Source: an uncultured Candidatus Poseidoniales archaeon (GTDB lineage: Archaea > Thermoplasmatota > Poseidoniia > Poseidoniales > Poseidoniaceae). From it: a DNA stretch of 64,000 bases. Shown in pieces: positions 5,301 through 56,000 of the stretch. The position numbers and the translations under genes were made by a program. The stretch covers positions 82,595-146,594 of the forward strand of contig CACLCM010000001.1 in assembly GCA_902605365.1 (NCBI GenBank), read 5' to 3'. The stretch's first letter is position 1; every line of letters starts with the position of its first letter. Below the pieces are notes generated by a model, which made no database searches, was not told the origin of the DNA, and saw nothing but the letters and a program-made list of their open reading frames with translations.

Positions 5301-8300
5301 TCTGATGGAGTCGATGACAAGTTGGTAATATCACTAATGGATTCCAATCAGCTAACCGTTTATGAGAGGGAAAGGTTTGGAACAGGCGACAATTGGAGTG
5401 TTGCAAAACAAATAGGGTTGGTTGCTAGTGACAATTACAATATGGCAATGGCTGGGCAGATCATCATCTTCGATGCAAATAATTCCGCCTCTCAAGGAAT
5501 CATAATCGAGGATAGTGGTAATTGGAGTTTAAGTTCTCTAGAAGTTCCTGATAGCATGACTGAGTATTATTTGTCACAGACCCAAGAAAGGTGGCATCTA
5601 ACCACTACCGATTCCTCAAACCAATTGGTTTGGACAACAGGCACAGTAAATGAAACTTCAACTACTGGCATTCAAACCTCAACCGTATTCCCTTCCATTA
5701 CCACAGATTACGTCGTTCCAGTACTGGATGTAGAAGGAACTCTAATGATGGCTTATTCCCAATCTTCAACAGATGATTTCCTCCTGATGAGGATGGTTAG
5801 TGATTTAGATAGAGACCTTATTCCTGATTCCCATGATGACTTGCCAATGCTTGGCAATCAATGGCAAGATTCTGATTTAGATGGCTTTGGAGACAATTCA
5901 TTAGGACCATCATCTGATGAATGCCCATCTTCATTTGGATTATCGACCTATGACCGAAACGGCTGTGATGATTATGACGAAGATGGTTGGTCAGACATCA
6001 TAGATGACTGTGCAAACGATGACGGGACATCTTGGTGGGGTTACTATGGATGTGATGATTATGACCAAGATGGTTGGGCTGACAATGACGCAACATTCGT
6101 AGATGGAGATAGATATCCAACAAATTGGAAACAAGCTCTAGATTCAGATCGTGACTCTTTCGGCGATAACCATGGTCCTGATTGTTGTGATGTAACCGTC
6201 TTGGGCTCGGTAGAAAGCAGCGTTCCTGACCTATTCCCATACAACCGTATGCAATGGGAAGACAATGACAATGATGGTTATGGAGATAATTATTCGGATA
6301 TAGAATTTGGAGACAAGTGTTTCTGGATTCAAGGATTCTCATGGAGAGATCGACTTGGCTGTGTAGATACAGATGGTGATGGTGCTTCAGACCCATCTGA
6401 CATTGGAACAAGCAAAGAGTGGACTGAGGAAGATGGCGCTGATTGGTGGCCAAATGATAGTACACAATGGGCTGATAGTGATGGGGATGGATATGGAGAT
6501 AATTCATCAGATGGAGCAACTCTTCCAGATAAATTCCCTACAAACCCTTCAGCAGCAAATGATACCGATAACGATGGCTATCCAAATAATTGGACTGCAC
6601 TGGATAATGGTACTAATCGAGCAGGCCTTATGCTAGATAGTTGCCCTAATGAGGCAGGTAATTCTACTTCGTCAGTAGACTCATCTGGTCTGATAGTCTC
6701 CTACTATGGCTGTACTGATACAGATGGTGACGGTCGAGAAGACTCAGCAGATGCTTTCCCAGATGACCCTACACAAATGGCAGATACAGATGGTGACGGC
6801 TGGGGAGATAACCAGCAAGGAAGTGACCCTGATAGATGCCCGTATGACTTCGGTGTAATCAACGGAACCAATGGAGTAGGCTGTCCTATAATCGGTGAAG
6901 AAAGTGATTATGACCAAGATGGTGTATCTGATGATTTCGACGATTGTAATAATACTCAAGCCGGACAACCTGTTGATGAAATTGGATGTTCAGATTATCA
7001 AAAGGATACTGACCAAGATTATGTTTCAGACGCAGAGGATATGTGCCCAAGCACTCCTATCGGTGAAGATGTTGACAGTGTCGGATGTTCAGATAGCCAG
7101 AATCTAGTCGATTCTGATGAAGATGGAATCTTTGACCCCTATGACCTATGTCCAGACTCAAATCCGCAATTAACAATCGATGAAAATGGTTGTAACTTGG
7201 CTCAAAAGGATACTGATGGGGATGGAGTTAACGACCTGATGGATGATTGTCCAGGCACTGAAGCAGGCATACCAGTTCTGTCCGATGGCTGCTTAGATGA
7301 AGCTGCTTTAGCGGAAGATATCGATGGTGATGGCTTCAAAGGCCCTTACTCTTACAATCCAGATAATGAAACTCATGAAGGCGATGCTTTCCCACTAGAT
7401 CCTACTCAGTGGCACGATATGGATGGAGATGGATATGGAGATTCACAAGCACCTGGCGCCAACAATTCTGATGATTGTCCTGAAGAATGGGGCAATTCAA
7501 CAATGAAATCTCGCTTCGGATGTTTAGACACAGATGGAGATGGATATCACGACTATCTTGGAGATGACAAATTCCCTGCGGATGGTACGCAATGGGAAGA
7601 TAGAGATCTGGATAGTTGGGGTGATAACCCTGATGGAAATGATGCAGACCAATGTTTGAACACTAGTACTGCAGGGGACCGAACAGAACAAGCAAGAATC
7701 AACTTTGGTTGTGCAGATTACCAATCTGATAGCGACAATGACGGAGTAACCGATGATGCTGATGCTTGTCCAGGAACTGTAGCTGGAGCGGAAGTTTACC
7801 CTAGTGGCTGTAAGAAAGAAACACAGGCAGAACCTGAATCTGAAGATGATTTAATCATGGGTATGGATTCAATGACCTTCTTTGCTATTGTTGGAGGAGG
7901 AGGACTTGTCATCATTGTACTGATAGTTTTCATAATTTCTAGAGTCCGAGGCGGAGATGACTTTGACTTCGATGATGATGATTGGGATGAAGACGACGAT
8001 GACGACGATGATGACTTCATGTCAAATATTCTCGGAAGAGGCCAATCACGTGGACCTCCTAGTAATGCAGGTCCAAGTCGAGGCCCACCTAGCCAAGCAG
8101 GACCAAGCCGAGGCCCTGGTGGCCCTAGTAGAGGCCCCCCTAGCCAAGCAGGACCAAGCCGTGGCCCAGGTGGCCCTAGTAGAGGCCCCCCTGGTGGAGC
8201 GGGACCTAGTAGAGGTCTTCCAAGCGCTGCAGGGCCGAGTCGAGGCCCCGGTGGCCCAAGTAGAGGTCCAGGCGGCCCAAGTCGAGGCCCAGGAGGTCCG

Positions 8301-8543
8301 AGTAAAGGTAAGAAGGTCGCCAAGCGTAAACCAATTGGCGATGCTAATGCTCGAAAGGCAGTAGCAGAGATGGATCCTGATTTATTCGCTCCTCAAGAAT
8401 TAGATGATAGAACTGCAGCAATCGATTGGACAAAGGGTGCTTTGAAAGACGGTGAAACAGAACGAACAATCCTAATGCAACTCCAAACTACTGGTTGGTC
8501 TGCTCCACAATCCAGAGCAATCATTGATTTGTCCAAACAATGA
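2346..8543 (+). CDS. Giant single-pass surface protein (2065 aa): signal/anchor, FG-GAP beta-propeller, thrombospondin type-3-like Ca-binding repeats, TM helix, repetitive cytoplasmic tail
   Basis: Uninterrupted 6.2-kb ORF with N-terminal hydrophobic segment IPLAIFALFVIQILAPMVALP. It has seven DxNxDGxxD FG-GAP motifs and many DxDxDGxxDxxD motifs. TM helix FFAIVGGGGLVIIVLIVFIISRV. ATG at 2349 is an alternative to GTG 2346. Confidence 0.9.
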   Translation: MMEVMSWRNKGIPLAIFALFVIQILAPMVALPTPELSSKKATPSQSVAFSSGSGHELQGDLISIDGKNWTVRGESVLDYWDLTSHDVDANVSMDLIVTEDGTGYACSINGTDVNMHTISQDGNFETLLVETLSVQADECAIAIGIQHRIQIVYNVGDDLRLARLAEPNAVYAERTWHLRTIVEDVFSGGLTISLDSDSKTQIIFQDVDMALHHVWFNRAYWNNTILDQGPVDDDIEVEIDSNGMYHILYTNPSEGELRLLKFNDTTETRQVLARGSTVTSAIGMDLDVNDIGQITYSKSDGLGNNTISLLRSLAGKDTGRIDPDPKWLINYDDDSVEGTVASGDLNGDGKDDLVYTDPEGNGTISIHYGSPGGPGALADRILVGSFSDSMLGTGLAIGDFNCDGFDDIASSEPGMAINNSGHISIRLGSSSGVATDAWWEMNGSDDDNLGWSLTSLGDVESDGCTDLAVVADKLIEENAQATLTKNGLVMVLKGNATSMIHHGNVTQSEFGSMFGRQVIGNGDINGDGFLDMVVSNTGSLDTPTGYSSVEFFFGNSTGIVLNSTGNTHAPLDTGKLYGVEMAFIGDVNGDGFDDILISELYAQTTPFHSGKVHMWAGSSTGPIAGTWSLKGSYANQLLGQTISPAGDINEDGFDDFLLMSPSSAKSGNIDLYLGSSNGPRTDTQLFAQGSNGENVGLNILSGIDLDGDGMGEILYSSRNLTRGDEFGPLLTIMSERDWEYVDFSFDNPVVGIDMHTPLRGSPSMMVMLSDSSVNLVENTLDGTPSGRWVTRALTTANDAHMGISSSGKPLFILITSDSSLATMTVEGNTGLDYSLNSGTGLGKLMGSDIDSNGYQRIGHASPGFSSIFYTEEGADGFTTSTMRTGIDLIHPINMFVDGDELSRMVYVDDENMVTLATLDGTWSEESILNTTIGDDFDSIWVDDTLLFIQVANSSNSTALQLVEYHNGTSTVTDIANASTSAEIEISDGVDDKLVISLMDSNQLTVYERERFGTGDNWSVAKQIGLVASDNYNMAMAGQIIIFDANNSASQGIIIEDSGNWSLSSLEVPDSMTEYYLSQTQERWHLTTTDSSNQLVWTTGTVNETSTTGIQTSTVFPSITTDYVVPVLDVEGTLMMAYSQSSTDDFLLMRMVSDLDRDLIPDSHDDLPMLGNQWQDSDLDGFGDNSLGPSSDECPSSFGLSTYDRNGCDDYDEDGWSDIIDDCANDDGTSWWGYYGCDDYDQDGWADNDATFVDGDRYPTNWKQALDSDRDSFGDNHGPDCCDVTVLGSVESSVPDLFPYNRMQWEDNDNDGYGDNYSDIEFGDKCFWIQGFSWRDRLGCVDTDGDGASDPSDIGTSKEWTEEDGADWWPNDSTQWADSDGDGYGDNSSDGATLPDKFPTNPSAANDTDNDGYPNNWTALDNGTNRAGLMLDSCPNEAGNSTSSVDSSGLIVSYYGCTDTDGDGREDSADAFPDDPTQMADTDGDGWGDNQQGSDPDRCPYDFGVINGTNGVGCPIIGEESDYDQDGVSDDFDDCNNTQAGQPVDEIGCSDYQKDTDQDYVSDAEDMCPSTPIGEDVDSVGCSDSQNLVDSDEDGIFDPYDLCPDSNPQLTIDENGCNLAQKDTDGDGVNDLMDDCPGTEAGIPVLSDGCLDEAALAEDIDGDGFKGPYSYNPDNETHEGDAFPLDPTQWHDMDGDGYGDSQAPGANNSDDCPEEWGNSTMKSRFGCLDTDGDGYHDYLGDDKFPADGTQWEDRDLDSWGDNPDGNDADQCLNTSTAGDRTEQARINFGCADYQSDSDNDGVTDDADACPGTVAGAEVYPSGCKKETQAEPESEDDLIMGMDSMTFFAIVGGGGLVIIVLIVFIISRVRGGDDFDFDDDDWDEDDDDDDDDFMSNILGRGQSRGPPSNAGPSRGPPSQAGPSRGPGGPSRGPPSQAGPSRGPGGPSRGPPGGAGPSRGLPSAAGPSRGPGGPSRGPGGPSRGPGGPSKGKKVAKRKPIGDANARKAVAEMDPDLFAPQELDDRTAAIDWTKGALKDGETERTILMQLQTTGWSAPQSRAIIDLSKQ
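3360..4500 (+). other. Seven FG-GAP (integrin-alpha-like) repeats, putative 7-bladed propeller
   Basis: GDLNGDGKDDLVYTD, GDFNCDGFDDIASSE, GDVESDGCTDLAVVA, GDINGDGFLDMVVSN, GDVNGDGFDDILISE, GDINEDGFDDFLLMS, IDLDGDGMGEILYSS, spaced about 50-65 aa apart. Confidence 0.7.
5800..7790 (+). repeat. Thrombospondin type-3-like Ca-binding repeat region (coding)
   Basis: Recurrent W(x)DxDxDGxGDN and DxDxDGxxDxxDxCP motifs, for example QDSDLDGFGDN, ADSDGDGYGDN, DTDGDGWGDN, DSDNDGVTDDADACPG. Confidence 0.75.
8044..8307 (+). repeat. Coding tandem repeat: nine exact GPSRG units plus two variants (Pro/Gly/Arg-rich cytoplasmic tail)
   Basis: The translation reads GPSRGPPSQAGPSRGPGGPSRGPPSQAGPSRGPGG... It follows the TM helix and an Asp-rich run (DDFDFDDDDWDEDDDDDDDD). 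Confidence 0.9.
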
Positions 8544-8610
8544 GGAATTATTAGTAAGGCATCAGGCTCAATAAGTGCGGACAGTTGGAAGGGAAGAGGA
8601 GAGGGAATTC

Positions 8611-10071
8611 ATGAGTGACGATGTTGCCGATGTCTCGATGCCAGAGGGTATCGAAGTCGATGATGCCGCTGCTTATTTCGGAGTATTCGAATCATCAGAT
8701 GCCCTTCATCAGATGATGGAGATGTCTCGTGAAGATGCTTTTGAGAAATTCTTTGCTCTGTTGTCAGACCTTGTACTCAAACCAGGAGACTTCGATTTTC
8801 AACTAGCCAGCGAGAGACTATCTTGTGAAGGAGGAGAGATCTATTTCCTCGTGGCAGGACATCTTGGAGTTATGTCTTTGCCAGAACAACTTTCATTGGC
8901 CATTAGTGAAGGACAATTTTCTGATGATGATTCCAAGTTATTGAGCGAGATAGCAGATCCGATGCGATTGCTAAAATTATTCGCTATCGCTCAGCAGACT
9001 GGAGGAGAGGGTGAAGCGACAAAATATCTCAAAGGTGTCGAATCTTTGATGTCAAACCCAGCAGCGAATAAGGATGCTTTACTTTCACTAGCGAGTGAAG
9101 TACAAGCAGCATTCGATGTCGCAGGACATGTAACACCTATCGCTAGTTTGTCTAGCGGAAGTGCTATCGCCAAAGAAGTCGAAGCAGCATACGTTACACC
9201 AACTCCAAAAGTTGTAGAAACCAAGCCTAAGGTAAAGCCAAAAGCAATTGAGACAGAGCCAGTGATAGTACCTGAGCCTGAACCTGAACCAGTATCAGTT
9301 CCACTTCCAACGCAGCAGGAGACAGCTCCTGTGGTTAACGATGTACCAGTTCCACTTCCAGAAATAGAAAAACCAAAGGTGGAAGTTGATGTTCGCAAAG
9401 ACTCAGAGAAAACTGAAGATGCGTTCGCAGGAGCCTTTGGAATGGTTGAGGAAGAGCCCGAACCTGAACCTGAACCCGAACCAGAGCCGGAGCCAGAGCC
9501 AGAGCCAGAGCCAGAAATGGAGGCTGAACCTGAACCGACTCTTGATGATGCCTTCGAAGCAGCAGATACTAACCAAAGTGGTGGCCTATCTATTGAAGAA
9601 GTGGTTCAAGCGACTGGTTTAGATGTTGAAGAAGCTACCAAACTACATGCTGAAGCCGATATCGATGGTGATGGAGAAGTTACTCTTGAAGAATTAAAAT
9701 CTAAGCCAGAGGTTATCGAAAAGATGGCTTTGCCTAAACCAGTAAAACCGGTCAGGGCAGGAATTCAAAATCCTCAACCAGTTCAACCACAGCAACAGCA
9801 ACAACAGGCTTGGGCTCAACAGCAGCAGCAACAGCAGCAGCAACAGGCTTGGGCTCAACAGCAGCAGCAACAGCAGCAACAGGCTTGGGCTCAGCAGCAA
9901 CAGCAGCAGCAGGCTTGGGCTCAGCAACAGCAGCAACAACAGCAAGGATGGAACCAACCAGTTCAACCGATGCAGCCTACAATTCGTTCAGGAATCCATT
10001 GTAGGGGTTGCCGAATTGGAGTTGACCCTAACTGGCGTTTCTGCCCAGTATGTGGTACTCAAATCCGTTGA
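8611..10071 (+). CDS. Acidic cytoplasmic protein with PE repeats, paired EF-hands, poly-Gln (QnAWAQ) repeats and C-terminal zinc ribbon
   Basis: The ORF is open from GTG 8575. ATG 8611 is preceded by the purine-rich ggaagggaagaggagaggg. EF loops are DTNQSGGLSIEE and DIDGDGEVTLEE. The C-terminus is CRGCRIGVDPNWRFCPVCG. Confidence 0.8.
   Translation: MSDDVADVSMPEGIEVDDAAAYFGVFESSDALHQMMEMSREDAFEKFFALLSDLVLKPGDFDFQLASERLSCEGGEIYFLVAGHLGVMSLPEQLSLAISEGQFSDDDSKLLSEIADPMRLLKLFAIAQQTGGEGEATKYLKGVESLMSNPAANKDALLSLASEVQAAFDVAGHVTPIASLSSGSAIAKEVEAAYVTPTPKVVETKPKVKPKAIETEPVIVPEPEPEPVSVPLPTQQETAPVVNDVPVPLPEIEKPKVEVDVRKDSEKTEDAFAGAFGMVEEEPEPEPEPEPEPEPEPEPEPEMEAEPEPTLDDAFEAADTNQSGGLSIEEVVQATGLDVEEATKLHAEADIDGDGEVTLEELKSKPEVIEKMALPKPVKPVRAGIQNPQPVQPQQQQQQAWAQQQQQQQQQQAWAQQQQQQQQQAWAQQQQQQQAWAQQQQQQQQGWNQPVQPMQPTIRSGIHCRGCRIGVDPNWRFCPVCGTQIR
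9451..9537 (+). repeat. Coding (Pro-Glu)n dipeptide repeat
   Basis: EEPEPEPEPEPEPEPEPEPEPEMEAEPEP is encoded by gaacct/gagcca hexanucleotide repeats. A shorter PEPEPEP run lies near 9271-9290. Confidence 0.9.
9790..9948 (+). repeat. Coding CAG/CAA-rich repeat (poly-Gln blocks separated by AWAQ, four units)
   Basis: QQQQQQAWAQQQQQQQQQQAWAQQQQQQQQQAWAQQQQQQQAWAQQQQQQQQGW. At the DNA level, caacaggcttgggctca recurs. Confidence 0.9.
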
Positions 10072-11256
10072 TCAGGCGATGAATACACCGTCATCCAATA
10101 TTTTGGTGTCATCTAACCAAACAGATGGTTTGGAAATTACTCCAGGAATATGAATTCCAACAGCTGCACTTCCTCCAAGACTTGAATTGTCGCCTATCGA
10201 AAAGTAGCATGTTCCAAGTTGTTTTTCATCCTCAAGAACATGGCCGGTCATTCTAGCATTTGGATTCATACCGAAACCAAATTCAGCAACTGTCCAAACC
10301 ATTTCTCTGTCTTTTGAACGAAGTCTCGAGGCTGCTTCTCCAAACTGTTGTCTAATCTGTGCAGCAGTAGAGTCTCCCTTGATATCAATTACAATTCCAT
10401 TTTCAACAGTCAGTTCTAACGGTTCTTCCAGAAGTGTAGACTCCCATGTACCATCGATGAAAATAGTGCCGTTCATTGAACCTTCACGCGGTAGAACAAA
10501 CGCTTTACCTGCGGGTAAATTTGTGATCATTCGTGGCCTATTACAAATACCATTATCGTCTAATTTCCAATCTCTCCAAGATACTTCAAATTCGATATCT
10601 GTGCCGTTTGAATCTTTTACATGAATCAAACGCTTCCTCCGAAGTGTGCTAGATAATTCCGATAAATTCTTCTTAATCTGATTGAAGTCAGCAGTCATCC
10701 CCCCTTCTACGAACATTTCAGGAGTCATACCGGGCATAGTTGCAACTCTTGCCCCCTCTTTGACAGCACTCCTAATCGCTCTTGTATGCGTTAGAGAATA
10801 TCGTGTTGGAGCAATTACGATTTGTTGCTGTCGCATCAAATTAGCCACCGGGGAAGGGGGTTCCTCTCCGTGATGACGGCTTTTAGGCATAACAATCAGT
10901 AGTACTCTATCAGAACGCTCAGTCGCAGCCCGATGAAGCGCTTGTCCAATCTCTCCTGTAGTTGGGTCACAAACAATCAGGACATTCTCACCCCTTCGTA
11001 TGTCCATACATGTATGTGTTACACGTTTTGCGGATTCTAGTAGAGCAGCTTCAAGATCGAAATCCATTTTTTCTTCTTCAATAATTTCCTCTTCATCGAC
11101 TTCAGCTTCAACCACTTCATCGATTTCAAGGTCGTCCTCAATTTCGGGCTTTTCATCCTTCGACTTACGGCGGAAGGGTGAGACCATGTATAGCGCAAAC
11201 ACGCATACGCCTTCAAATTGTGCCCAATTCGTTATGAAATCTTGAAGAATAAGCAA
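10072..11256 (-). CDS. Aminopeptidase, M29 (aminopeptidase T/AmpS-like) family, with acidic N-terminal extension
   Basis: GENVLIVCDP..., VATMPGMT, FGFGMNPNA, LEDEKQLGTCYFSIGDN fit the M29 thermophilic metalloprotease layout. The true start may be Met at 11187 (MVSPFRRK), because 11256 leaves only 14 nt to the divergent gene. Confidence 0.7.
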   Translation of the reverse strand: MLILQDFITNWAQFEGVCVFALYMVSPFRRKSKDEKPEIEDDLEIDEVVEAEVDEEEIIEEEKMDFDLEAALLESAKRVTHTCMDIRRGENVLIVCDPTTGEIGQALHRAATERSDRVLLIVMPKSRHHGEEPPSPVANLMRQQQIVIAPTRYSLTHTRAIRSAVKEGARVATMPGMTPEMFVEGGMTADFNQIKKNLSELSSTLRRKRLIHVKDSNGTDIEFEVSWRDWKLDDNGICNRPRMITNLPAGKAFVLPREGSMNGTIFIDGTWESTLLEEPLELTVENGIVIDIKGDSTAAQIRQQFGEAASRLRSKDREMVWTVAEFGFGMNPNARMTGHVLEDEKQLGTCYFSIGDNSSLGGSAAVGIHIPGVISKPSVWLDDTKILDDGVFIA

Positions 11257-11270
11257 CTTTACGATGGTAT

Positions 11271-12758
11271 ATGGGCGAGCAAGAAGAATTCATGCTGAGA
11301 GTTAATGACTTATACCGATTTGAAGCAATTCAAGGCCACTTAGGGTGGGACCAAGAAACAATTATGCCTACTAAAGGAGCAAAGGCACGTGGTGAAATTC
11401 TAGCTTGGTTAGCCGGGCAGAGACATAGCCGACTAATCGACCCAGAGTTAGGTGAACTAATCTCATCACTCGAAAATAAGGAATTGGATGATTTCCTTAC
11501 AGCCAATGTCAAAGAGATGAGAAGGAAATATGATGAAGCGGTCAAACTACCAACTGAGTTTGTATCCTCTTTTACCAAAGCACGAAGTGAGGCTTTAATA
11601 TCCTGGCAAAAAGCTCGTAGTGATAGCGATTTTAGTCAATTCGCTCCACACTTGGAGAATATGGTGAAATTAACTCGCCAGAAAGTCGAGTACCTTGGTA
11701 GTGAATCGACACCATATGATGTCCTTCTAGACGAATATGAAGTCGGAATGACGGTCGCTGATTATGACCCACTATTCGCAGGATTGAAAGAAAGGCTAGT
11801 GCCTTTGTTGTCGAAGATTATGGAATCAGGGACTGAAATCCCTAGATTACCTGAAGATATGACATTCCCAATCGATTCTCAGGAGATGTTTTGCAACCAA
11901 GTTAGCAAAGCGATGGGCTTTGATTTTGAGGCAGGTCGTATGGATAGATCAACTCATCCTTTCTGTGCAGGACTATGGCCAGATGACACTAGATTCACCA
12001 CAAGGTTTGATGAAAAAGACCCATTTTCCTGTCTTTATGCTGTAATGCATGAATCAGGACATGGATTGTATGAGCAGGGTTTGCCTAGAGAGCACAGTTA
12101 CTCTCCAGTAGGCATGGCGGTTTCATTAGGTGTTCACGAATCACAAAGTCGATTCTGGGAGAATCAAATTGGAAGAACTGCAGCGTTTTGGAATGTAGCA
12201 ATGCCTTGGTTTAGAGAACAATTCCCAGATTGTCCAGACTGGAGTAATGAAACTTTAGATTTGGTGGCAAACGAAGTAAAGCCTGATTTCATTCGTGTTG
12301 AAGCGGATGAAGTAACTTATAATTTGCATATCATGATTAGATATGAGATTGAAAAGATGATTTTCAATGAGGGATTGGCTGTAGAAGATATTCCTGAAAC
12401 ATGGAATAAGATGATGAAAGATTGGTTTGGAATCGATGTGCCAAGTGATTCGCTTGGATGCTTACAAGATATCCATTGGTCTATGGGTGCATTCGGTTAC
12501 TTCCCAACATATACTCTAGGAAATTTATATGCGGCTCAGTTGCTTGAATCAATGGCTGATGAGTTAGGAGATATCGATGATATAATCTCATCAGGAGATT
12601 GGTCCAGCATGCTATCTTGGCTACGCTTACAAATCCACGATAAGGGGTCTGTTATCACTCCTTCAGAGCTAATTGAATCAGCAACAGGCAAAGCACCTAG
12701 TCCAGATGCATTCCTCAACTATGTTGAGAGTAAATATTCCAAGTTATACAACTTGTAA
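11271..12758 (+). CDS. Carboxypeptidase, M32 (Taq carboxypeptidase) family
   Basis: The family hallmarks are present: HESGHGLYEQG (HExxH), HPF, IRVEADEVTYNLHIMIRYEIE and DIHWSMGAFGYFPTYTLG. Confidence 0.85.
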   Translation: MGEQEEFMLRVNDLYRFEAIQGHLGWDQETIMPTKGAKARGEILAWLAGQRHSRLIDPELGELISSLENKELDDFLTANVKEMRRKYDEAVKLPTEFVSSFTKARSEALISWQKARSDSDFSQFAPHLENMVKLTRQKVEYLGSESTPYDVLLDEYEVGMTVADYDPLFAGLKERLVPLLSKIMESGTEIPRLPEDMTFPIDSQEMFCNQVSKAMGFDFEAGRMDRSTHPFCAGLWPDDTRFTTRFDEKDPFSCLYAVMHESGHGLYEQGLPREHSYSPVGMAVSLGVHESQSRFWENQIGRTAAFWNVAMPWFREQFPDCPDWSNETLDLVANEVKPDFIRVEADEVTYNLHIMIRYEIEKMIFNEGLAVEDIPETWNKMMKDWFGIDVPSDSLGCLQDIHWSMGAFGYFPTYTLGNLYAAQLLESMADELGDIDDIISSGDWSSMLSWLRLQIHDKGSVITPSELIESATGKAPSPDAFLNYVESKYSKLYNL

Positions 12759-30196: not shown

Positions 30197-30234
30197 CCCG
30201 ATTTAGTTTGTAATCTGGTTTCAAGAACATAGGC

Positions 30235-30245
30235 CACGGTGTGTC
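30235..30245 (+). repeat. Left direct repeat of islet (cacggtgtgtc)
   Basis: Exact 11-mer shared with 34839-34849. It lies 39 nt after the esterase stop and 41 nt before the DUF262 gene stop. Confidence 0.55.
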
Positions 30246-30286
30246 CTAGACCTATTTTAATCAAATTCAACTATCGAGTTTGTACA

Positions 30287-32605
30287 TCACTCGTATTCTT
30301 GCCACCTTGATAAAATCCATTTCGTGAGAAGTTTCGATCTTTCATCATGCGATAAATTGTCATATCCTAACGAATATTTTTCTGCTGTTAATTTTATTCT
30401 TCTGTACTTTGCCTGATTAGAATAATAGTACTGTTTACAGTTTTTCGGTTCCTCGGTCATACCAAATTTTGAATCCCAATCAAAATTACTCGCCTCACTA
30501 TTTTCATATGGTTGCAAAATTGTTAGATTCCCAATTGTGTTACTATATTTTTGATGCCACTTCTGATAATCTGGCTCTTCGCCTTCAAGGATTTTAATTT
30601 CATCAGAAAATTCCCATGTTTCCATTCTCGGAACCCATTTTGTATATGTCTCTGGGATGATATGTTCAATGGTGCTTTCAGTGTATTTTTCAATCACGTA
30701 ATCTTTGTGGCCCACCTTACTTCCAGACATTTCATATTCGTTCAATAAATACCTAGCCAAAGCTCTTTTTGAGTACATATTTGTTGATTTAAGTTCTCTA
30801 GTAACAGATTCATCGTCAGGATAATCATATCCAGATGTTGATTTTAACTTTCTAAGTAATGAGTTTGAATCTGGTTTTTCTCCACATGTCTTCCACATTC
30901 CTCTGAAAAAGTTTGTGAATCCTGCGTTTTGTAAACTACAGATGTTACGGCGTACTAGATATGATTCAATGACGTCCAAACACTTGGCAACCTCATCCTC
31001 TTGAGATTGAGTTCTTCTGTAAAATTGAAGTAATTCCATAAGGTACGGGAACGTCGTTGTAGGAGGATTATATCTTCGTAAACGAAGCAGCCGTTTCCAA
31101 ATCTTTTCACTTGTTCTAATTGGATCTGTTTTGCCACCATCGGCCTCCAATATTTCATTCTCTGGGAATTCTCGACAAAGAGAGATGTACACTGGGGCCA
31201 TTTCTTTTAATTCAGCAATCATTGCCGCTGATGTAGATTTTTTCGTTTTCCAATAATGTCTTAGTTGGACATACATCTTTCCTTTTGTGACATTTTCAAT
31301 AGGCCTAGTTAATGTAAAAGGAAAATAATAATCATCCAATTTCGATTTGACGTTGTTATTCGATTTGAATGAAAAGGATTCTTCATACTCTCGCATACTT
31401 CCTTCATAAAGATCATTAGCAGCTTCTGGCATATCTATTAGATTTTCAAAAATGAGGTTTCTGACTAAGTCTCCTGCTGATAGCTTTTTTCCAGTATTAT
31501 TCAAACGCTCGAAAATCATGTAAGGGTTTATTTCATTTGGAAGAATAATCATCGTGAAAAACAATCGATCTTTGATTATTTCAAACAAATATTCTAATTT
31601 TTCTCTGACTACATTTCCCTTTGAATCTCTAACCCTAGCTTTTACTCCCTTAATTAGATCGTTTTTCCAGGCATTGATTAATCTAACATTCTTACCTTTA
31701 TCCTGATTTAATTTTGGCTGTCCTAATGTTGGTATTAGATATTTTAGAATCTCGTTAAATTGTTTGGTATCAGAAATAGTTGGTACAATTGTGGGTGTGT
31801 TTTTTCTTGTCCCTGTTTTCACTGTCAAAGGGTCAGCAAAATTCTCTGCTATATCTCCAAACCCATTATCTTGGGCAACTTTGGTGATTGCACAAATTAG
31901 AGCATACAATGTGGTCAATCTTTGCTGCCCATCAATTACCCAATTTTCCTGAGTGCTTGATCCCGCTCCTGGCTTTGAGATACTAACCAAAATAGCGCCC
32001 AAGAATTGACTGTTTTCGTTGCCATGCCAAATATCATCGATATCACTCCATAGAGTGTCAAACTCGGTTTTTTCCCATTTGTAACGTCTTTGAAACATTG
32101 GCATTACGTAAATTTCTGTTCCATTAAGCAAAGTGCCTATAGTTTCTTGAGTTAAGGTAAGGTCTTCGCTTTTTGTATATATTCTATCTTCATTAGAACT
32201 TGGAATTGGATACTCCTCATATTGAATTACTGTCTCATTATCATTATCCAGATTATGCTCGATAGTCAGAGTTTTTTGCAGGATGAGACAAATTAAAACT
32301 TCCTCTTCTTCGTCATAATAAATCTCCATTTCATCATCTAGGTTTCCGAGATCTTTGATGTTAGAAATTCCAAATCGTCGATCACCTCTTGTTCTCGAAC
32401 GATAAATTGACATTTGTCCAATCTGTTTGGATTCTCCAATTCGAATTTGTATTGGCACCACAACTCCATTTTCCCTGCCATTTTTCATTTTTTCATAATC
32501 ACAGATTTCTAATTTACGAAGTAGTTTCCTGAGAGACGGTTTGGAATCAAATAGGTTCTTACCCCAGTTATTTGCAGTGAATACATACTTGGGTCTTTCT
32601 TCCAT
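30287..32605 (-). CDS. DUF262 (ParB-like NTPase) + DUF1524 (His-Me finger nuclease) protein, GmrSD/type IV restriction family, with unassigned N-terminal domain of about 145 aa
   Basis: VMPMFQRRYKWEK and VIDGQQRLTT are the DUF262 motifs. STIEHIIPE and IGNLTILQPYENSEASN are the DUF1524 motifs. The start is 4 nt downstream of the methyltransferase stop. Confidence 0.8.
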   Translation of the reverse strand: MEERPKYVFTANNWGKNLFDSKPSLRKLLRKLEICDYEKMKNGRENGVVVPIQIRIGESKQIGQMSIYRSRTRGDRRFGISNIKDLGNLDDEMEIYYDEEEEVLICLILQKTLTIEHNLDNDNETVIQYEEYPIPSSNEDRIYTKSEDLTLTQETIGTLLNGTEIYVMPMFQRRYKWEKTEFDTLWSDIDDIWHGNENSQFLGAILVSISKPGAGSSTQENWVIDGQQRLTTLYALICAITKVAQDNGFGDIAENFADPLTVKTGTRKNTPTIVPTISDTKQFNEILKYLIPTLGQPKLNQDKGKNVRLINAWKNDLIKGVKARVRDSKGNVVREKLEYLFEIIKDRLFFTMIILPNEINPYMIFERLNNTGKKLSAGDLVRNLIFENLIDMPEAANDLYEGSMREYEESFSFKSNNNVKSKLDDYYFPFTLTRPIENVTKGKMYVQLRHYWKTKKSTSAAMIAELKEMAPVYISLCREFPENEILEADGGKTDPIRTSEKIWKRLLRLRRYNPPTTTFPYLMELLQFYRRTQSQEDEVAKCLDVIESYLVRRNICSLQNAGFTNFFRGMWKTCGEKPDSNSLLRKLKSTSGYDYPDDESVTRELKSTNMYSKRALARYLLNEYEMSGSKVGHKDYVIEKYTESTIEHIIPETYTKWVPRMETWEFSDEIKILEGEEPDYQKWHQKYSNTIGNLTILQPYENSEASNFDWDSKFGMTEEPKNCKQYYYSNQAKYRRIKLTAEKYSLGYDNLSHDERSKLLTKWILSRWQEYE

Positions 32606-32609
32606 GTTA

Positions 32610-33908
32610 TTACTCGTAAGTTAATATTGATTTAATTCTTTCACCAATCGATTTCGCCATAAATGGAGGGACAGCGTTTCCAATTTGAGTGTATTTTGGA
32701 CACTCTCTTTCAAAAATACCCTCACTTGGTTTTCCCGCACGACGATCTCCACCAGTAGTTCTTGGCCCTAAGAATACATGATGATCTGGTAATGTTTGAA
32801 GACGAGCCCATTCTCTAACAGAATATGTCCTAGGAACTGAATAATGAACGTAATCATCTGGTATTGATTGACAAGTCATTGTAGGATTATTTCCCTTCCA
32901 TCTTCTTGGAGTAAACGATTGATTGTTTTTCTTAGTGCGTAAATGTTCAGGACAGTCTTTCATATTGCACTGATTATCAATCATGAATTGAAATCTCTCT
33001 TCAGTTGATGGACGATGATTTGAAAACTCGTGATCTGTAAGGAGATGCTTTCTCCAATTATCGCCTAACATGGCACGCATTTGTTTTTGGTACTCTGTTT
33101 TTGGTTTCTTACGATGCCTAGGTTTTTCTTCTATCCAACCTTGGAAATTTAAATCATCAATTGCATCAATGATGTCAGGAGGAATTAGTCCATTTCCAAT
33201 AGGAAATAATCCGCCATTGTTCCTTAATTCACCACTATAATTTGACTTTCCTCCCTGAAAGAACTTTTTTTGACGGGGATTAAATTTAATCATGTCGAAT
33301 TCGCCTTTCGAATAAACGTCATGCCTAACCCCCATGATCATGACACGTGGACGGTTTTGAGGAACTCCGAAATTGTACGCATGAAGTAATGTTGGTTGGA
33401 TTTTGTATCCTTCGATGCTCTCAAATTCTTTCCATACCCTCCTAAATACCTCTCCTTTCCTTGCTTTCTTTTTTTTCCATTTAGCTGTAAGTAAGCCTTC
33501 CACATTCTCAAATAAGAAAACCTTAGGTTGAAGTATATTGATCACTCTAATCATTTCTTGGAAAAGGTAACTTGTTGGGATATCTTTAGTTTCCACTTTC
33601 TGACTTCTGCGAACTTGACTACGTGAATATTCTTGACAAGGAGGGCCTCCACAAAGCAAGTCAAGTTTACCTATGCCTCCTAATATTGGTAGCAGTTCCT
33701 TTTTGATAATGTCATTGGATAACACATCGACTATGTTTCCTACAAATGGTATCGCATCAGGGAAATTGGCTCGAAAGGATGCTGCTGCATTCACATTTAC
33801 CTCATTGAAAGCTACGCATCTAAACCCCGCCCCTTCCAAACCTCTAGTTAATCCGCCGCACCCTGCGAACAAATCAACACTTGTCAGATTCCTTCGCTCT
33901 CCCATCAT
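32610..33908 (-). CDS. dcm: DNA (cytosine-5)-methyltransferase
   Basis: Motif I DLFAGCGGLTRGLEGAGF, motif IV GGPPCQEYS, motif VI LFENVEGL, motif VIII QNRPRV, motif X GNAVPP. Confidence 0.9.
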   Translation of the reverse strand: MMGERRNLTSVDLFAGCGGLTRGLEGAGFRCVAFNEVNVNAAASFRANFPDAIPFVGNIVDVLSNDIIKKELLPILGGIGKLDLLCGGPPCQEYSRSQVRRSQKVETKDIPTSYLFQEMIRVINILQPKVFLFENVEGLLTAKWKKKKARKGEVFRRVWKEFESIEGYKIQPTLLHAYNFGVPQNRPRVMIMGVRHDVYSKGEFDMIKFNPRQKKFFQGGKSNYSGELRNNGGLFPIGNGLIPPDIIDAIDDLNFQGWIEEKPRHRKKPKTEYQKQMRAMLGDNWRKHLLTDHEFSNHRPSTEERFQFMIDNQCNMKDCPEHLRTKKNNQSFTPRRWKGNNPTMTCQSIPDDYVHYSVPRTYSVREWARLQTLPDHHVFLGPRTTGGDRRAGKPSEGIFERECPKYTQIGNAVPPFMAKSIGERIKSILTYE

Positions 33909-33929
33909 TTGTTGTGTGCCAACACCTGG

Positions 33930-33936
33930 ATATAAA
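33930..33936 (-). promoter_or_regulatory. TATA-box-like element upstream of methyltransferase (would give a leaderless or near-leaderless mRNA)
   Basis: The minus strand reads gggTTTATATcc. The element is centred about 26 nt upstream of the ATG at 33908, matching archaeal TATA-to-TSS spacing. Confidence 0.3.
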
Positions 33937-33977
33937 CCCTGGCTTTAAACAATCAATTCACACCAATTAAAGCAGTT

Positions 33978-34696
33978 TTAGTAATTAGTTCTAACCAAAA
34001 TTCGACTGACTTGTTTGTGAGACCATTTTCCTCCTCGCTTGGCAGGAACGCCACACTCATTCAATTCTCTTGCAATCTCTGAAACCTTAATGCCGTCTTC
34101 GTGATACCTTGCATGGATGTATTCAATCCACTTCTGTTCCTCTTCATTCTCGATGAAGTTGTTGTCCTCATCCACATCCCAACCGTATTTATCGTAGGTG
34201 AATCGCTTTCCTGTATCTTTGAGATGCTGTAAGGCCATACAGGTTCGCTCGCTGATGAGATTCCTCTCCATTTCACCAAAGGCAGCCAAGATGGTAATCA
34301 GCATCCTGCCAACTGCTGAAGACAAATCAAGAGGTTGCCCTCCTGATTCACAGAATTGAATTCCTACTCCAAATTCATCTAATTCTTCTACTGTAGCAAG
34401 GCAATCGATGGTGCTGCGAAATAATCTATCCATTCTGTAAGCAAAAATGTGCTTAATTTTCTGCTTAAGGATGAACGCTTCATCTGCTTAGCAGCAGGTC
34501 TTGACCACAATGGCACCTTGGCACTCACTCCGTCATCGATGAAAATATTCTCATCAGGAAGCAGTAAATTACGAAATTCTGCGTTAGCTTTTCCTTTGGC
34601 AATTTGAGCATCTATGCTCACTCCATCCTCCGCTTGACGAGTTGTTGATACTCGAACGTAGAGAACGCATTCTTCTGCTTGTTTCTGCTTAGCCAT
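33978..34696 (-). pseudogene. Serine recombinase (resolvase/invertase type with recombinase/HTH C-terminal part), interrupted by a frameshift near 34472-34490
   Basis: The upstream frame gives MAKQKQAEECVLYVRVSTTRQAEDGVSIDAQ...DDGVSA...RPAAK. The other frame continues ADEAFILKQKIKHIFAYRMDRLFRSTIDCL...AAFGEMERNLISERT...GGKWSHKQVSRIL. The two halves are ORFs 34388-34834 and 33978-34433. Confidence 0.75.
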
Positions 34697-34838
34697 CAAT
34701 CTAGATTTATCCGGCTTGGTATTTACACTCACGCGACGGCCAAAAGTTCGGACACTGGGTTGGTGTGTCCGTCTTTTTCTGCTTGTAGAAGCAGAAGTAA
34801 AAGTGGATTTTCGGGTTGCTATATGGTCGGCCATACCG

Positions 34839-34849
34839 CACGGTGTGTC
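34839..34849 (+). repeat. Right direct repeat of islet (cacggtgtgtc)
   Basis: Exact 11-mer shared with 30235-30245. It lies upstream of the recombinase and 55 nt before the next plus-strand gene. Confidence 0.55.
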
Positions 34850-34903
34850 TTGAGGAGGATTTTCCTACGATTAGTTTATCACCTACATCCTTGAGTTTTG
34901 AGC

Positions 34904-53082: not shown

Positions 53083-56000
53083 GTGATGATGATGTTTTTG
53101 AAGACTATGAATAACGACGGGCGTGCAAGAGCAATTTTGCTAGTCCTGATAATGTTACTTTCAACAACTGCCGCGAACCTAGTTTCTGCTTCGACTTCTC
53201 GTACCTATACGACTGATACAGACCCTGTTGATGTTGCATTGGGAGATTTCGATTGTGACGGAGACTTGGACATCGTAACAGCAAACGACAGAAGTACCAG
53301 AATTTCGGTTTTGTGGAATGAAAATGGACATTTCCAGAAGCGCACAGATATCTGGACTTCCGCTAACCCGAACCAAGATGCTGATTTCGAAGATCACTCA
53401 AACACTCAGCAGGTTGAAGTCGGTGAATTCACCGGTGACGACGCTATAGATATCGTAATCTATGCACGTAACAGGCCTCTACGCCAAGATGCAACAGGTG
53501 CGATTGTAGTCGATAAACCAGGTAACGTTACCATCGTTGAAAATGACGGCTGTAGCGTTGACACATTCACGATCAGACAACAATTCGATGTTGTTTGGAT
53601 GTGGGACCTTGCAGTAGCTGATTTGGACCAAGATGGCAACGACGATATCGTCACTCTAGAGTTGTTAGCTGACTTGAAGAATCAGCGTGTTGTCACATAC
53701 CGTGGACCAATCACTTCAAGCACTCAAGGACAAATCACAAGTCTAGGAGATTCTACTCAGAATGCATACAGGGAACTGGAATTAGGTGATTGGGGAGAAC
53801 CTAGTCAGACCAATCCGGTAAGCGGAAGTTGTGATGACAATGACCTTTGGTTAGTTCGCTCAGAAGGTGTAGATTACCTGACCGGCGCGGCAACTAATCC
53901 TGGTAAGTCTGACAACGTTACAGTAGTCGAATTTAATTGTCTTACCAACACTTTCCCTGCTACGATAACATGGAGTTCAACCGGAAGTGCAGGATTACAC
54001 GTTCATGCTTTAGGACCTGAATTTGGTGGTTTCGATATTGCAGACTTAGACAATGATGGAATCATCGACGTAGTTGCAATCAACGATGCAAATACTGAAA
54101 ACGTAACCTATGCAACAATTACGCAATCAACACACACCTACTCTCCTTCAAAGACAGTGTATTTCGGGCCATATATCGCTTGGGAAGTTACTGTTGGTGA
54201 ATTGAACGGTGACGGTGAACCGGATTTCGTTCATGCTGCTAAGTTCAAGCAATCCAACGCAACATCCTCTACAGGAGATACGACTACCAATTACTATCTG
54301 AACTTACCAACAAGCGTACAGGTTACTCTTTCAAACGGTAACGGTGGACATATGAATCCTCTAGAGTACTTTGGTGCAATGAGGCCAACCACTGTTGCAA
54401 TTGGGCAGGTTATTGGCGGGGCTAACAGTGCACCTGACTTGATTGTCGGTCACGGATCATACGACCAATTCACCTATGACGATAACTTTGGCTGGGATGG
54501 CTCATACGACCGAATCGTAGTTATCGAGATGGATAACAAAGACTTGGCGGTTTCAAATATCGATATTTCACCAACCGACGCATATGTTGGACTACTTGGA
54601 GAAGGTACTCGTGAAGTCGAAGTAACAGTAACCAATACTGGAATGGATATCCTAAACGGACAGGCTACTCTTGACGTTGAAATCAAGGAAGTAGACGAAG
54701 CAGCATCTAGCAATGTCACAGTTTATGCTATGGATTGGGATAACCCTGAGGACAAATCTGGGTGTGGCACAGGGTGTGGATGGACTACTGAAGCGTATTA
54801 TGGTGTAAGCCACTGGCACGAAGAAGTCGCTGCTAACAGTTCTGTTGGCCACACTTCTGGTAACAATGCCCCCGCACAGTCTGCTAACGCAAACAACCCA
54901 ACCGATTTCATGTGGTCTGGTGTCATGAAGACCAACTCAAGTGGAGACACTTGGTCCGGATATGAACCAAACTGGGATGAAGGACTAGTTCTGAATGACG
55001 TAGATTTGACAGGTGCAGACCGTGCTTGGATGAGTATTGAGATGTTCAGGCATCTCGGTCTAGCAGATCTTTACACTCAAGACACCAATGGATACGTTCT
55101 AGCTGAAGTTTGGGATGATGCAGCAATTATCGAAGTTTTCTCTGATGATGAAGGATGGGTAACCATCGCATGCCCAACAAGTGCTTACTTCGCAAACCAG
55201 TGTGCCTCGGGAGAGAGTTACTGGGGTGGCTATGACCAAGGAAGAGTTGAGAGTGAACAGAACACTGGCCTAGACGCTGCTATCTTCCGATATGGTGGAG
55301 CAATACCTGGTACACAATACGGCTGGGGTAACTTTACCGAAGATGACCTTGGTGCATTCGAACTATCTAGTTTCGCAGGAGACATAATCGATATTAGATT
55401 CCGCTTCAAGTCTGGATGGGAAGGTTCCTTAGGAACTAACGAATCTACTTGGTCTGGAAGAGATGGTTTCGCTATCGATAACGTAACAATCTGGAAACAG
55501 AATACAGCGTTCACATCAAATGTCCAAAATCAACAGTCAACTATCAATATGAACAACTTGGCTCCTAACGAGGACTACACTACTGCAATTACTGCTGATT
55601 TCATTAATGGAACAACATATCGCATATCTGCAGTCTTGAATTATGCACAAGATGAACAGCCAGCTAACGACGACATTGTTGGTTACATTACAGCATTCAA
55701 TATCTTTGACCCTGCTGTTATGAAGATAGATTCGTTTAATCCTGGTGGATTATATGCAGAAGGTAACTTCCCAATCGAAGTAATGGTTGAGCATCTTGGT
55801 AATACAAATGTCACATTCGACCTTGAAGCCAAGGTCTACAGTGCACTACCTACCGATGTATACTGCGGTTCCCCACTAGTCGTTTGTGAAGAAGGATTCG
55901 AAGGCGGCTCGTCTGGATTTAGATACACCGATGACAACAATGCAAACGGTGGAATTCTTGATGATTCAACTTGCGCTGAGAAGATTTTCGGTTCTCACGC

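Follow-up and report, generated by a model that had tools for sequence, protein, structure and literature searches.

A C5-cytosine methyltransferase paired with a B3-like–DUF262–DUF1524 nuclease: a predicted two-gene restriction–modification system on a mobile islet of an uncultured Poseidoniales archaeon

A 64,000-nt stretch of contig CACLCM010000001.1 from an uncultured Candidatus Poseidoniales archaeon (referred to here, at its full length, as the window) carries on its minus strand two adjacent open reading frames (ORFs), one encoding a C5-cytosine DNA methyltransferase (M; 32610..33908, 432 aa) and the other a nuclease (R; 30287..32605, 772 aa) in which a B3-like domain precedes the DUF262 and DUF1524 domains of the GmrSD family. 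The pair probably constitutes a two-gene, methylation-blocked and likely nucleoside triphosphate (NTP)-dependent restriction–modification (R–M) system with CCWGG as its predicted recognition sequence, carried on a 4.6-kb serine-recombinase islet. This reading draws on domain content, intact catalytic motifs, a predicted fold, conserved synteny, domain-swap relationships, a promoter motif and the mobility of the islet. No published description of a C5-methylase combined with a B3-like–DUF262–DUF1524 protein was found in the literature searched, and the N-terminal domain of R gave no sequence match in Pfam, NCBIfam or the PDB, in keeping with the suggestion of the first-pass annotation of this DNA that the architecture is not a described system.

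Overall architecture of the methylase and the nuclease

The two genes are separated by 4 nt, with the methylase upstream and a junction that reads ...GAG TAA taac ATG...; the coordinates, the gap and the domain calls of the first-pass annotation agree with the ORF list, the junction sequence and Pfam. Along its entire length M is matched by PF00145 (E = 1.9e-56); it also matches the dcm superfamily model TIGR00675 (E = 5e-48) and the PADLOC model MTase_II (E = 1.2e-78). In its translation FAGCGG, PCQ, ENV, QNRPR, GNAVPP and a block that corresponds to motif IX are found, and motifs I, IV, VI, VIII, IX and X are complete; all of these apart from motif IX had already been read from the sequence (motif I, IV PCQ, VI ENV, VIII QNRPR and X GNAVPP). 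On these grounds M is a complete, active-looking C5-methyltransferase. The earlier label 'Dcm-type' holds at the level of the TIGR00675 superfamily and fails at the level of orthology: M was rejected as an orthologue of Dcm/M.EcoRII, the alignment being confined to the catalytic half with an identity of 29%.

The 772 residues of R are arranged as a B3-like DNA-binding pseudobarrel (residues ~5–110; 32276..32593), an acidic linker that is predicted to be disordered (residues ~111–150; 32156..32275), with a predicted local distance difference test score (pLDDT) of <50 at residues 114–150, a DUF262/GmrSD_N ParB-like NTPase domain (residues 156–386; 31448..32140), a helical middle domain and a DUF1524/GmrSD_C His-Me (HNH) nuclease domain (residues 595–724; 30434..30823), all on the minus strand. 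The NTPase and nuclease domains were recognized through PF03235 (GmrSD_N/DUF262; E = 1.9e-32) and PF07510 (GmrSD_C/DUF1524; E = 2e-16), respectively. In an alignment with relatives, the NTPase motifs FQR..W and DGQQR (D225–R229), the function of which is taken from published work (PMC11662687), are invariant, as is the His-Me motif EHxxP...N...N, which in R is EHIIP...N693...N702 with H648 as its histidine. Pfam detected DUF262 and DUF1524 alone in R; a PD-(D/E)XK domain of the MvaI_BcnI family is absent from R and is found in sister proteins. A search of 185,579 reference genomes returned no full-length relative of R, only relatives that lack the B3-like domain, with identities of up to 36%. 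An exact-sequence look-up of R in a contig index gave no entry, although R itself is present in the protein collection.

Conserved linkage to C5-methylases

The B3-GmrSD clade was examined in eight distinct loci, namely the window and seven further loci (L001, L002, which stands also for L003–L005, L006, L007, L008, L065 and L146, which stands also for L147–L149). A C5-methylase lies directly upstream of the nuclease on the same strand in all eight, the intervening gap ranging from −20 to +45 nt; in L007 the methylase is cut by the end of the contig, and its remaining 168 residues score E = 5.8e-51. The identity of the nuclease to R of the window ranges from 34 to 76% and is higher still in L065, which is a partly broken homologous islet. 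A linkage present in all eight of these distinct but homologous loci goes far beyond what chance would produce, and the tightly coupled gene pair that was proposed from the window alone is a conserved arrangement.

The methylases of these loci fall into two types. Those of type 1 (the window, L001, L006 and L008) are 68–88% identical to one another, and those of type 2 (L002, L007 and L146) are ~38% identical to type 1. The methylase and nuclease trees are discordant, in that both methylase types pair with both nuclease sub-clades, and the partnership has therefore been re-assorted, although the partner is always a C5-methylase.

In the family in which the B3-like domain is joined to an MvaI/BcnI-type nuclease (B3-MvaI), a C5-methylase is present within 2 kb in 75 of 80 metagenome loci, the remaining five being cut by contig ends; it lies mostly less than 200 nt away, upstream and on the same strand, and at least seven of these methylases align over their full length with M (38–43% identity). 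Among the nuclease relatives without the B3-like domain in the reference genomes (21–36% identity), in contrast, only five of 51 loci have a C5-methylase within 10 kb. The neighbourhood survey thus refutes the possibility, raised in the first-pass annotation, that the nuclease shows no conserved linkage to methylases.

Several further features of these loci were observed. A gene for a Vsr mismatch endonuclease stands beside the M–R pair in L146–L148; at L146 4236–5144 (and also in L147 and L148) Vsr and a conserved 153-aa ORF without a Pfam match lie just downstream of the B3-GmrSD gene in convergent orientation. Vsr usually accompanies methylases that place 5-methylcytosine (m5C) on the host genome; none was found in the 64-kb window. 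The closest metagenomic relatives without the B3-like domain that were examined, P0011 and P0012, lie inside larger m5C-associated clusters, and at L009 5232–11953 the genes for a C5-methylase of 736 aa and an McrB-like AAA_5 protein lie ~2.5 kb upstream of that for the 650-aa P0011. At L064 1755–2657, a 300-aa ORF without a Pfam match is located between the methylase and the B3-MvaI enzyme.

The N-terminal B3-like domain and its family

Residues 1–150 of R gave no meaningful sequence or profile match in Pfam (E up to 10), NCBIfam or the PDB, and no Pfam or NCBIfam model was found for the family to which they belong. AlphaFold2 predicted the core of the domain with a pLDDT of >90 from an input of seven sequences, and with a mean pLDDT of 95.9 and a predicted template-modelling (TM) score of 0.86 from an alignment of 41 sequences. 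When the model was compared with the PDB using Foldseek, the top matches were the plant B3–DNA complexes of FUS3 (probability 1.00), LEC2 (0.99) and VAL1 (0.95 and 0.80), with TM scores of 0.53–0.60, and all matches below the plant B3 domains were noise. Because Foldseek ranks these complexes first, the model of the N-terminal domain is described as a B3-like DNA-binding pseudobarrel. The B3-like fold serves as a site reader or effector in EcoRII, UbaLAI, BfiI and NgoAVII/CglI (PMC5766183, PMC4267653).

When 1.84 billion representative proteins were searched exhaustively with a profile, the family of the N-terminal domain was found to have 652 members at E ≤ 1e-3, of which 222 remained at E ≤ 1e-10. 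Its commonest architecture, in proteins of ~380–420 aa (a length class that accounts for 62 of the 149 best matches), is the N-terminal domain followed by a PD-(D/E)XK nuclease of the MvaI/BcnI family, which is the architecture of UbaLAI, a Type IIE enzyme that is monomeric and has CCWGG as its site (PMC5766183). Fusion to DUF262 and DUF1524 is rare and is confined to three 50%-identity clusters, every one of them marine. The reader domain of R is thus that of a large family of restriction endonucleases partnered with methylases.

Other partners of the N-terminal domain were also seen. It is fused to DUF262 alone in P0137, which matches the NsnA and PD-T4-2_A models, to TIR, Roc/COR and LRR domains in P0157 and to a helix-turn-helix or sigma region 4 in P0229, and it occurs in the 2195-aa protein P0123 together with weak STAND/AAA NTPase matches that lie below the Pfam cut-offs. 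The family appears to be a general DNA sensor of defence proteins. Two tandem ORFs at L140 4563–6671 each carry the B3-like domain of this family. A stand-alone, virus-encoded protein of 127 aa (BFVD entry A0A646QVF9) matches the model of the N-terminal domain (Foldseek E = 9e-7, TM scores 0.74/0.67, 20% identity); judged from this structural match, it could be a decoy, an anti-restriction factor or a gene fragment.

The operon promoter and the predicted recognition sequence

The 69-nt spacer upstream of M reads, on the coding strand, ...aaagCCAGGgTTTATATCCAGGtgttggcacacaacaaATG, and contains the core of the operon promoter (33925..33942, minus strand, about 21–34 nt upstream of the M start). 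Within this core a TATA-like box, TTTATAT (33930–33936), lies ~22–28 nt before the start codon of M, a distance that would fit an archaeal leaderless transcript, and is bracketed by two CCWGG sites 13 nt apart (33938–33942 and 33925–33929). The arrangement CCWGG–TATA–CCWGG at −35/−22 is kept in the window, L008, L002 and L146. The pair is CCTGG...CCTGG in L008 and CCAGG...CCTGG in L002 and L146; CC..GG is constant, and the central W is either A or T. Loci of either methylase type and of either nuclease clade are among those that have the pair. The promoters of L001 and L006 retain one CCWGG site each, and both sites are mutated in L065. CCWGG pairs spaced 10–16 nt apart are rare: four were found in 590 kb of control loci, and the only one in the 64-kb window is that of the M promoter.

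As the promoter pair is both conserved and rare, CCWGG is predicted, on good but indirect evidence, to be the recognition sequence of the M–R system, and expression of the operon is probably tied to the methylation state of the pair or to binding of M or R there. Autoregulation through sites in R–M promoters is known in other systems. The promoter pair is not a general trait of the B3-MvaI family; this was rejected, as none of 67 methylase starts of that family had it. Avoidance of the motif by the host proved uninformative as a test of specificity: GATC, AGCT and CGCG are far more depleted than CCWGG, presumably for other reasons. Several palindromes of four nucleotides are markedly scarce in the window relative to a Markov expectation, with observed/expected ratios (O/E) of 0.26 for GATC (z = −13.8), 0.48 for AGCT, 0.39 for CGCG and 0.74 for CATG, which suggests long-standing pressure by other R–M systems in this archaeal lineage.

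The mobile islet and its genomic setting

The recombinase, M and R together occupy a low-GC islet of 4.6 kb (30226..34851), which was delimited from its GC content (0.36–0.39, compared with ~0.43 in the flanks) and from its homology to a second archaeal contig, L065, with positions 7758–12379 of which it shares 86% identity across 4647 nt. The L065 copy has other immediate flanks and lies in the same broad variable region. Direct repeats of CACGGTGTGTC (plus strand) mark the right end (30235..30245) and the left end (34839..34849) of the islet, as located by a repeat search, the limits of the L065 homology block and an alignment of the four junctions; the 11-nt core GACACACCGTG is present at all four islet junctions of the window and L065, with one mismatch in one copy.

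The serine recombinase (33978..34696, minus strand) was identified from Resolvase and Recombinase matches in Pfam on two overlapping ORFs (33978–34834), into which it is split by one frameshift in the window. The frameshift of the L065 copy is elsewhere, and a protein of ~245 aa was reconstructed from the two copies together. Truncation of the recombinase by insertion of the R–M genes was considered and rejected, since the end point is shared by the L065 copy, which makes ~245 aa the native length. The reading frames of M and R in L065 are broken into several pieces, which could reflect real decay of the whole system or an error of long-read assembly. From its gene content and ends, the islet is a minimal integrative element composed of a recombinase, M and R.

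Six flanking genes were checked and encode a DPRP protein, an Fpg/Nei protein, an esterase, an EF-hand membrane protein, an aminotransferase and one ORF product without a Pfam match; those with assigned families are housekeeping genes. No phosphorothioation (dnd/ssp) genes were found in the islet or among these six genes. Proteins neighbouring the islet are also present in Tara Oceans metagenome-assembled genomes labelled 'Euryarchaeota archaeon', which would fit a host of the Marine Group II type. Two giant ORFs lie elsewhere in the window, one of 2065 aa at 2346–8543 and one of 2171 aa at 53083–59598.

Proposed mechanism and relation to known systems

From these features we infer the direction of methylation sensitivity, the NTP dependence, the position of cleavage, the CCWGG specificity and the regulation of the system. 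M would mark the host DNA with m5C, most likely at CCWGG, and the N-terminal B3-like domain of R would bind CCWGG that is unmethylated. Binding would license the DUF262 NTPase module to switch on the DUF1524 HNH domain, which would then nick or cut the DNA near the site, and methylation by M would block the binding of the B3-like domain and in this way protect self DNA. The GmrSD-type DUF262/DUF1524 chassis would stand in for the MvaI/BcnI catalytic domain that most relatives with the B3-like domain possess, and the two CCWGG sites around the TATA-like box probably couple expression of the operon to methylation or to binding of M or R. Activation of the nuclease by NTP binding or hydrolysis has been described for GmrSD, BrxU, SspE and DndI (PMC11662687, PMC12065111).

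Functionally, the M–R pair seems closest by analogy to CglI/NgoAVII, and to BfiI and UbaLAI. CglI/NgoAVII likewise have a C5-methylase and an R protein guided to its site by a B3-like domain, together with a non-specific nuclease and an NTPase (PMC4267653); there the NTPase is obligatory and methylation of the site blocks activity (PMC4267653). Unlike all of these systems, the M–R pair uses a GmrSD chassis in cis. With UbaLAI and EcoRII, both of Type IIE, which recognize CCWGG (PMC5766183), R shares an N-terminal B3-like domain on a restriction enzyme as well as its predicted site, and the B3–MvaI-like layout of UbaLAI is that of the sister family of R, which adjoins m5C methylases; the catalytic part of R, however, is DUF262 plus DUF1524 and not PD-(D/E)XK, and the likeness of the B3-like domains is at the fold level only.

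The core of R, with its DUF262–helical–DUF1524 order and its DGQQR and His-Me motifs, is that of the Type IV enzymes GmrSD, Eco94GmrSD and BrxU, which stand alone, attack DNA with modified cytosines and have neither a cognate methylase nor a B3-like domain. Extra domains are known on GmrSD-type enzymes (DUF4268, DUF4357 and DNA_binding_1), and published GmrSD neighbourhoods contain mostly Type I R–M genes. R departs from the stand-alone habit through the upstream C5-methylase that accompanies all members of its clade. The first-pass annotation had described DUF262/DUF1524 enzymes as stand-alone or as parts of larger systems. SspE (of SspABCD–SspE) and DndI (of DndBCDE–DndI) are precedents for a DUF262–DUF1524 protein that acts as the modification-blocked restriction arm of a DNA-modification system. 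Their mark is backbone phosphorothioation, the product of a multi-gene pathway, and a hydrophobic pocket of DUF262 senses it, whereas the mark of the M–R pair would be m5C from a single methylase, with a separate B3-like reader. LlaJI, which unites McrBC-like proteins with m5C methylases (PMC12707154), resembles the M–R pair in turning Type IV machinery on unmodified sites and differs from it in using AAA+ McrB/McrC machinery of several subunits. Menshen NsnA (PMC12065111) also carries a B3-like domain N-terminal to a DUF262 ParB-like NTPase; it differs from R in lacking DUF1524, in having NsnB and NsnC as partners and in having no obligate methylase. Given the precedents SspE, DndI, LlaJI and CglI/NgoAVII, the novelty is that of a variant, which combines R–M systems, B3-guided restriction endonucleases and the GmrSD chassis, and not that of a new category.

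The juxtaposition of a methylase with a GmrSD-like nuclease had earlier been called a paradox. The pair is indeed unusual, but the paradox is resolved by the B3-like reader, which R shares with a family of classical restriction endonucleases that are nearly always found beside C5-methylases. Among the three explanations put forward at that time, a restriction arm that reads the absence of m5C and a methylase that shields self from the nuclease amount to the same logic, which is the best supported; an addiction module is compatible, because the pair rides on a small mobile islet.

Evidence weighed against the proposed system and alternative explanations

Several observations weigh against a methylation-blocked, CCWGG-directed system. 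All of its functional claims are computational. No similarity was found between the variable, target-recognition region of M and that of M.EcoRII, which leaves the promoter motif as the only source of the CCWGG prediction, and the window shows no more than a mild depletion of CCWGG (O/E 0.77, z = −2.3). The B3-like domains of the two nuclease clades, which would need a shared specificity, are 29–30% identical. The Foldseek E-values of the domain are modest (2.8e-3), as are its TM scores of merely 0.53–0.60, and a profile comparison with EcoRII-N from the authentic EcoRII gene of a plasmid record gave an hhalign probability of 0.3%, so that homology to EcoRII-N was rejected and the resemblance is claimed at the fold level only. 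A B3-like fold is by itself silent on whether methylated or unmethylated DNA is read; McrB-N, an m5C reader, has a B3-like fold too. Characterized GmrSD and BrxU need modified cytosines, and BrxU cuts m5C DNA. Lastly, the recombinase of the window is frameshifted, and the islet may therefore be decaying.

In one alternative, R would sense the self mark in the manner of SspE and DndI: it would read the m5C placed by M through its B3-like or DUF262 domain, the reading would modulate the NTPase in such a way that the nuclease is restrained on self DNA or freed from it, and unmarked DNA would be nicked with little sequence specificity. By sequence, the solved structure closest to R is DndI (9jfl, E = 2.7e-8), followed by SspE, and among the PADLOC models Orf5 scores best, ahead of those for HEC-06 and SspE; modification regulates both the NTPase and the nuclease in DndI and SspE (PMC11662687). 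The shuffling of methylase types relative to nuclease clades would also be easier to accommodate if R reads a generic mark. The B3 family, however, otherwise sits on sequence-specific MvaI/BcnI-type restriction endonucleases beside C5-methylases, the conserved promoter pair implies a defined site, and the islet and the six checked flanking genes are free of phosphorothioation genes. We regard this alternative as unlikely. An m5C analogue of Ssp/Dnd that includes an epigenetic switch may likewise be doubted: here R would read m5C–CCWGG in the host, which would silence an NTP-driven, sequence-independent nuclease, and transcription of the operon would depend on methylation through the two CCWGG sites that flank its TATA-like box, with M made before R after transfer. 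If true, it would provide a GmrSD-type enzyme with an inverted modification dependence together with a methylation-controlled archaeal promoter.

That the pair is primarily a selfish addiction module, stabilizing the islet by post-segregational killing with defence as a by-product and with the B3-like domain perhaps acting mainly as an autoregulator at the CCWGG pair, has a rather low probability. In favour of addiction, the islet is compact and mobile, has direct repeats at its ends and was seen in two distinct genomic settings; a CCWGG site stands on either side of the TATA-like box; and in the L065 copy M, R and the two promoter sites seem to have been lost jointly. Addiction does not, however, exclude restriction, as Type II R–M systems do both, and the B3-like domains of the sister family sit on bona fide restriction-endonuclease catalytic domains in loci without the CCWGG promoter pair, so that regulation cannot be the general role of the domain. 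An addiction role is thus compatible with the favoured R–M system and is not an alternative to it. Finally, an ordinary modification-dependent Type IV GmrSD enzyme beside an independent or orphan methylase, the product of which it does not recognize, would agree with the modification dependence of all characterized GmrSD-family nucleases except SspE and DndI and with the frequency of GmrSD homologues in defence islands near other R–M genes, but it is strongly disfavoured by the same-strand, near-overlapping synteny of eight out of eight divergent loci, which persists even after replacement of the methylase type, by an islet of 4.6 kb that holds the recombinase, M and R only, and by the C5-methylase that lies near the B3 family in 75 of 75 informative loci, against five of 51 for relatives without the domain.

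Conclusions

In conclusion, this study describes a C5-methylase and a B3-like–DUF262–DUF1524 nuclease that are encoded together on a minimal mobile islet and probably act as a methylation-blocked R–M system. GmrSD is the textbook example of a Type IV enzyme that cuts modified DNA. If the proposed system is real, adding no more than a B3-like site reader would be enough to turn the GmrSD chassis into the restriction arm of a classical methylase-protected system; the chassis would directly take the place of the MvaI/BcnI catalytic domain found in a large and uncatalogued family of restriction endonucleases linked to m5C, and the boundary between Type II and Type IV systems would be blurred. For annotation, a protein that joins a B3-like domain to DUF262/DUF1524 should not be assigned to Type IV when its gene lies next to that of a C5-methylase. 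R would also represent a potentially NTP-dependent, CCWGG-directed enzyme. To our knowledge, almost nothing is known of the defence of Marine Group II-like archaea, and a minimal mobile R–M islet with a candidate methylation-sensitive promoter is here documented in uncultured members of this group.

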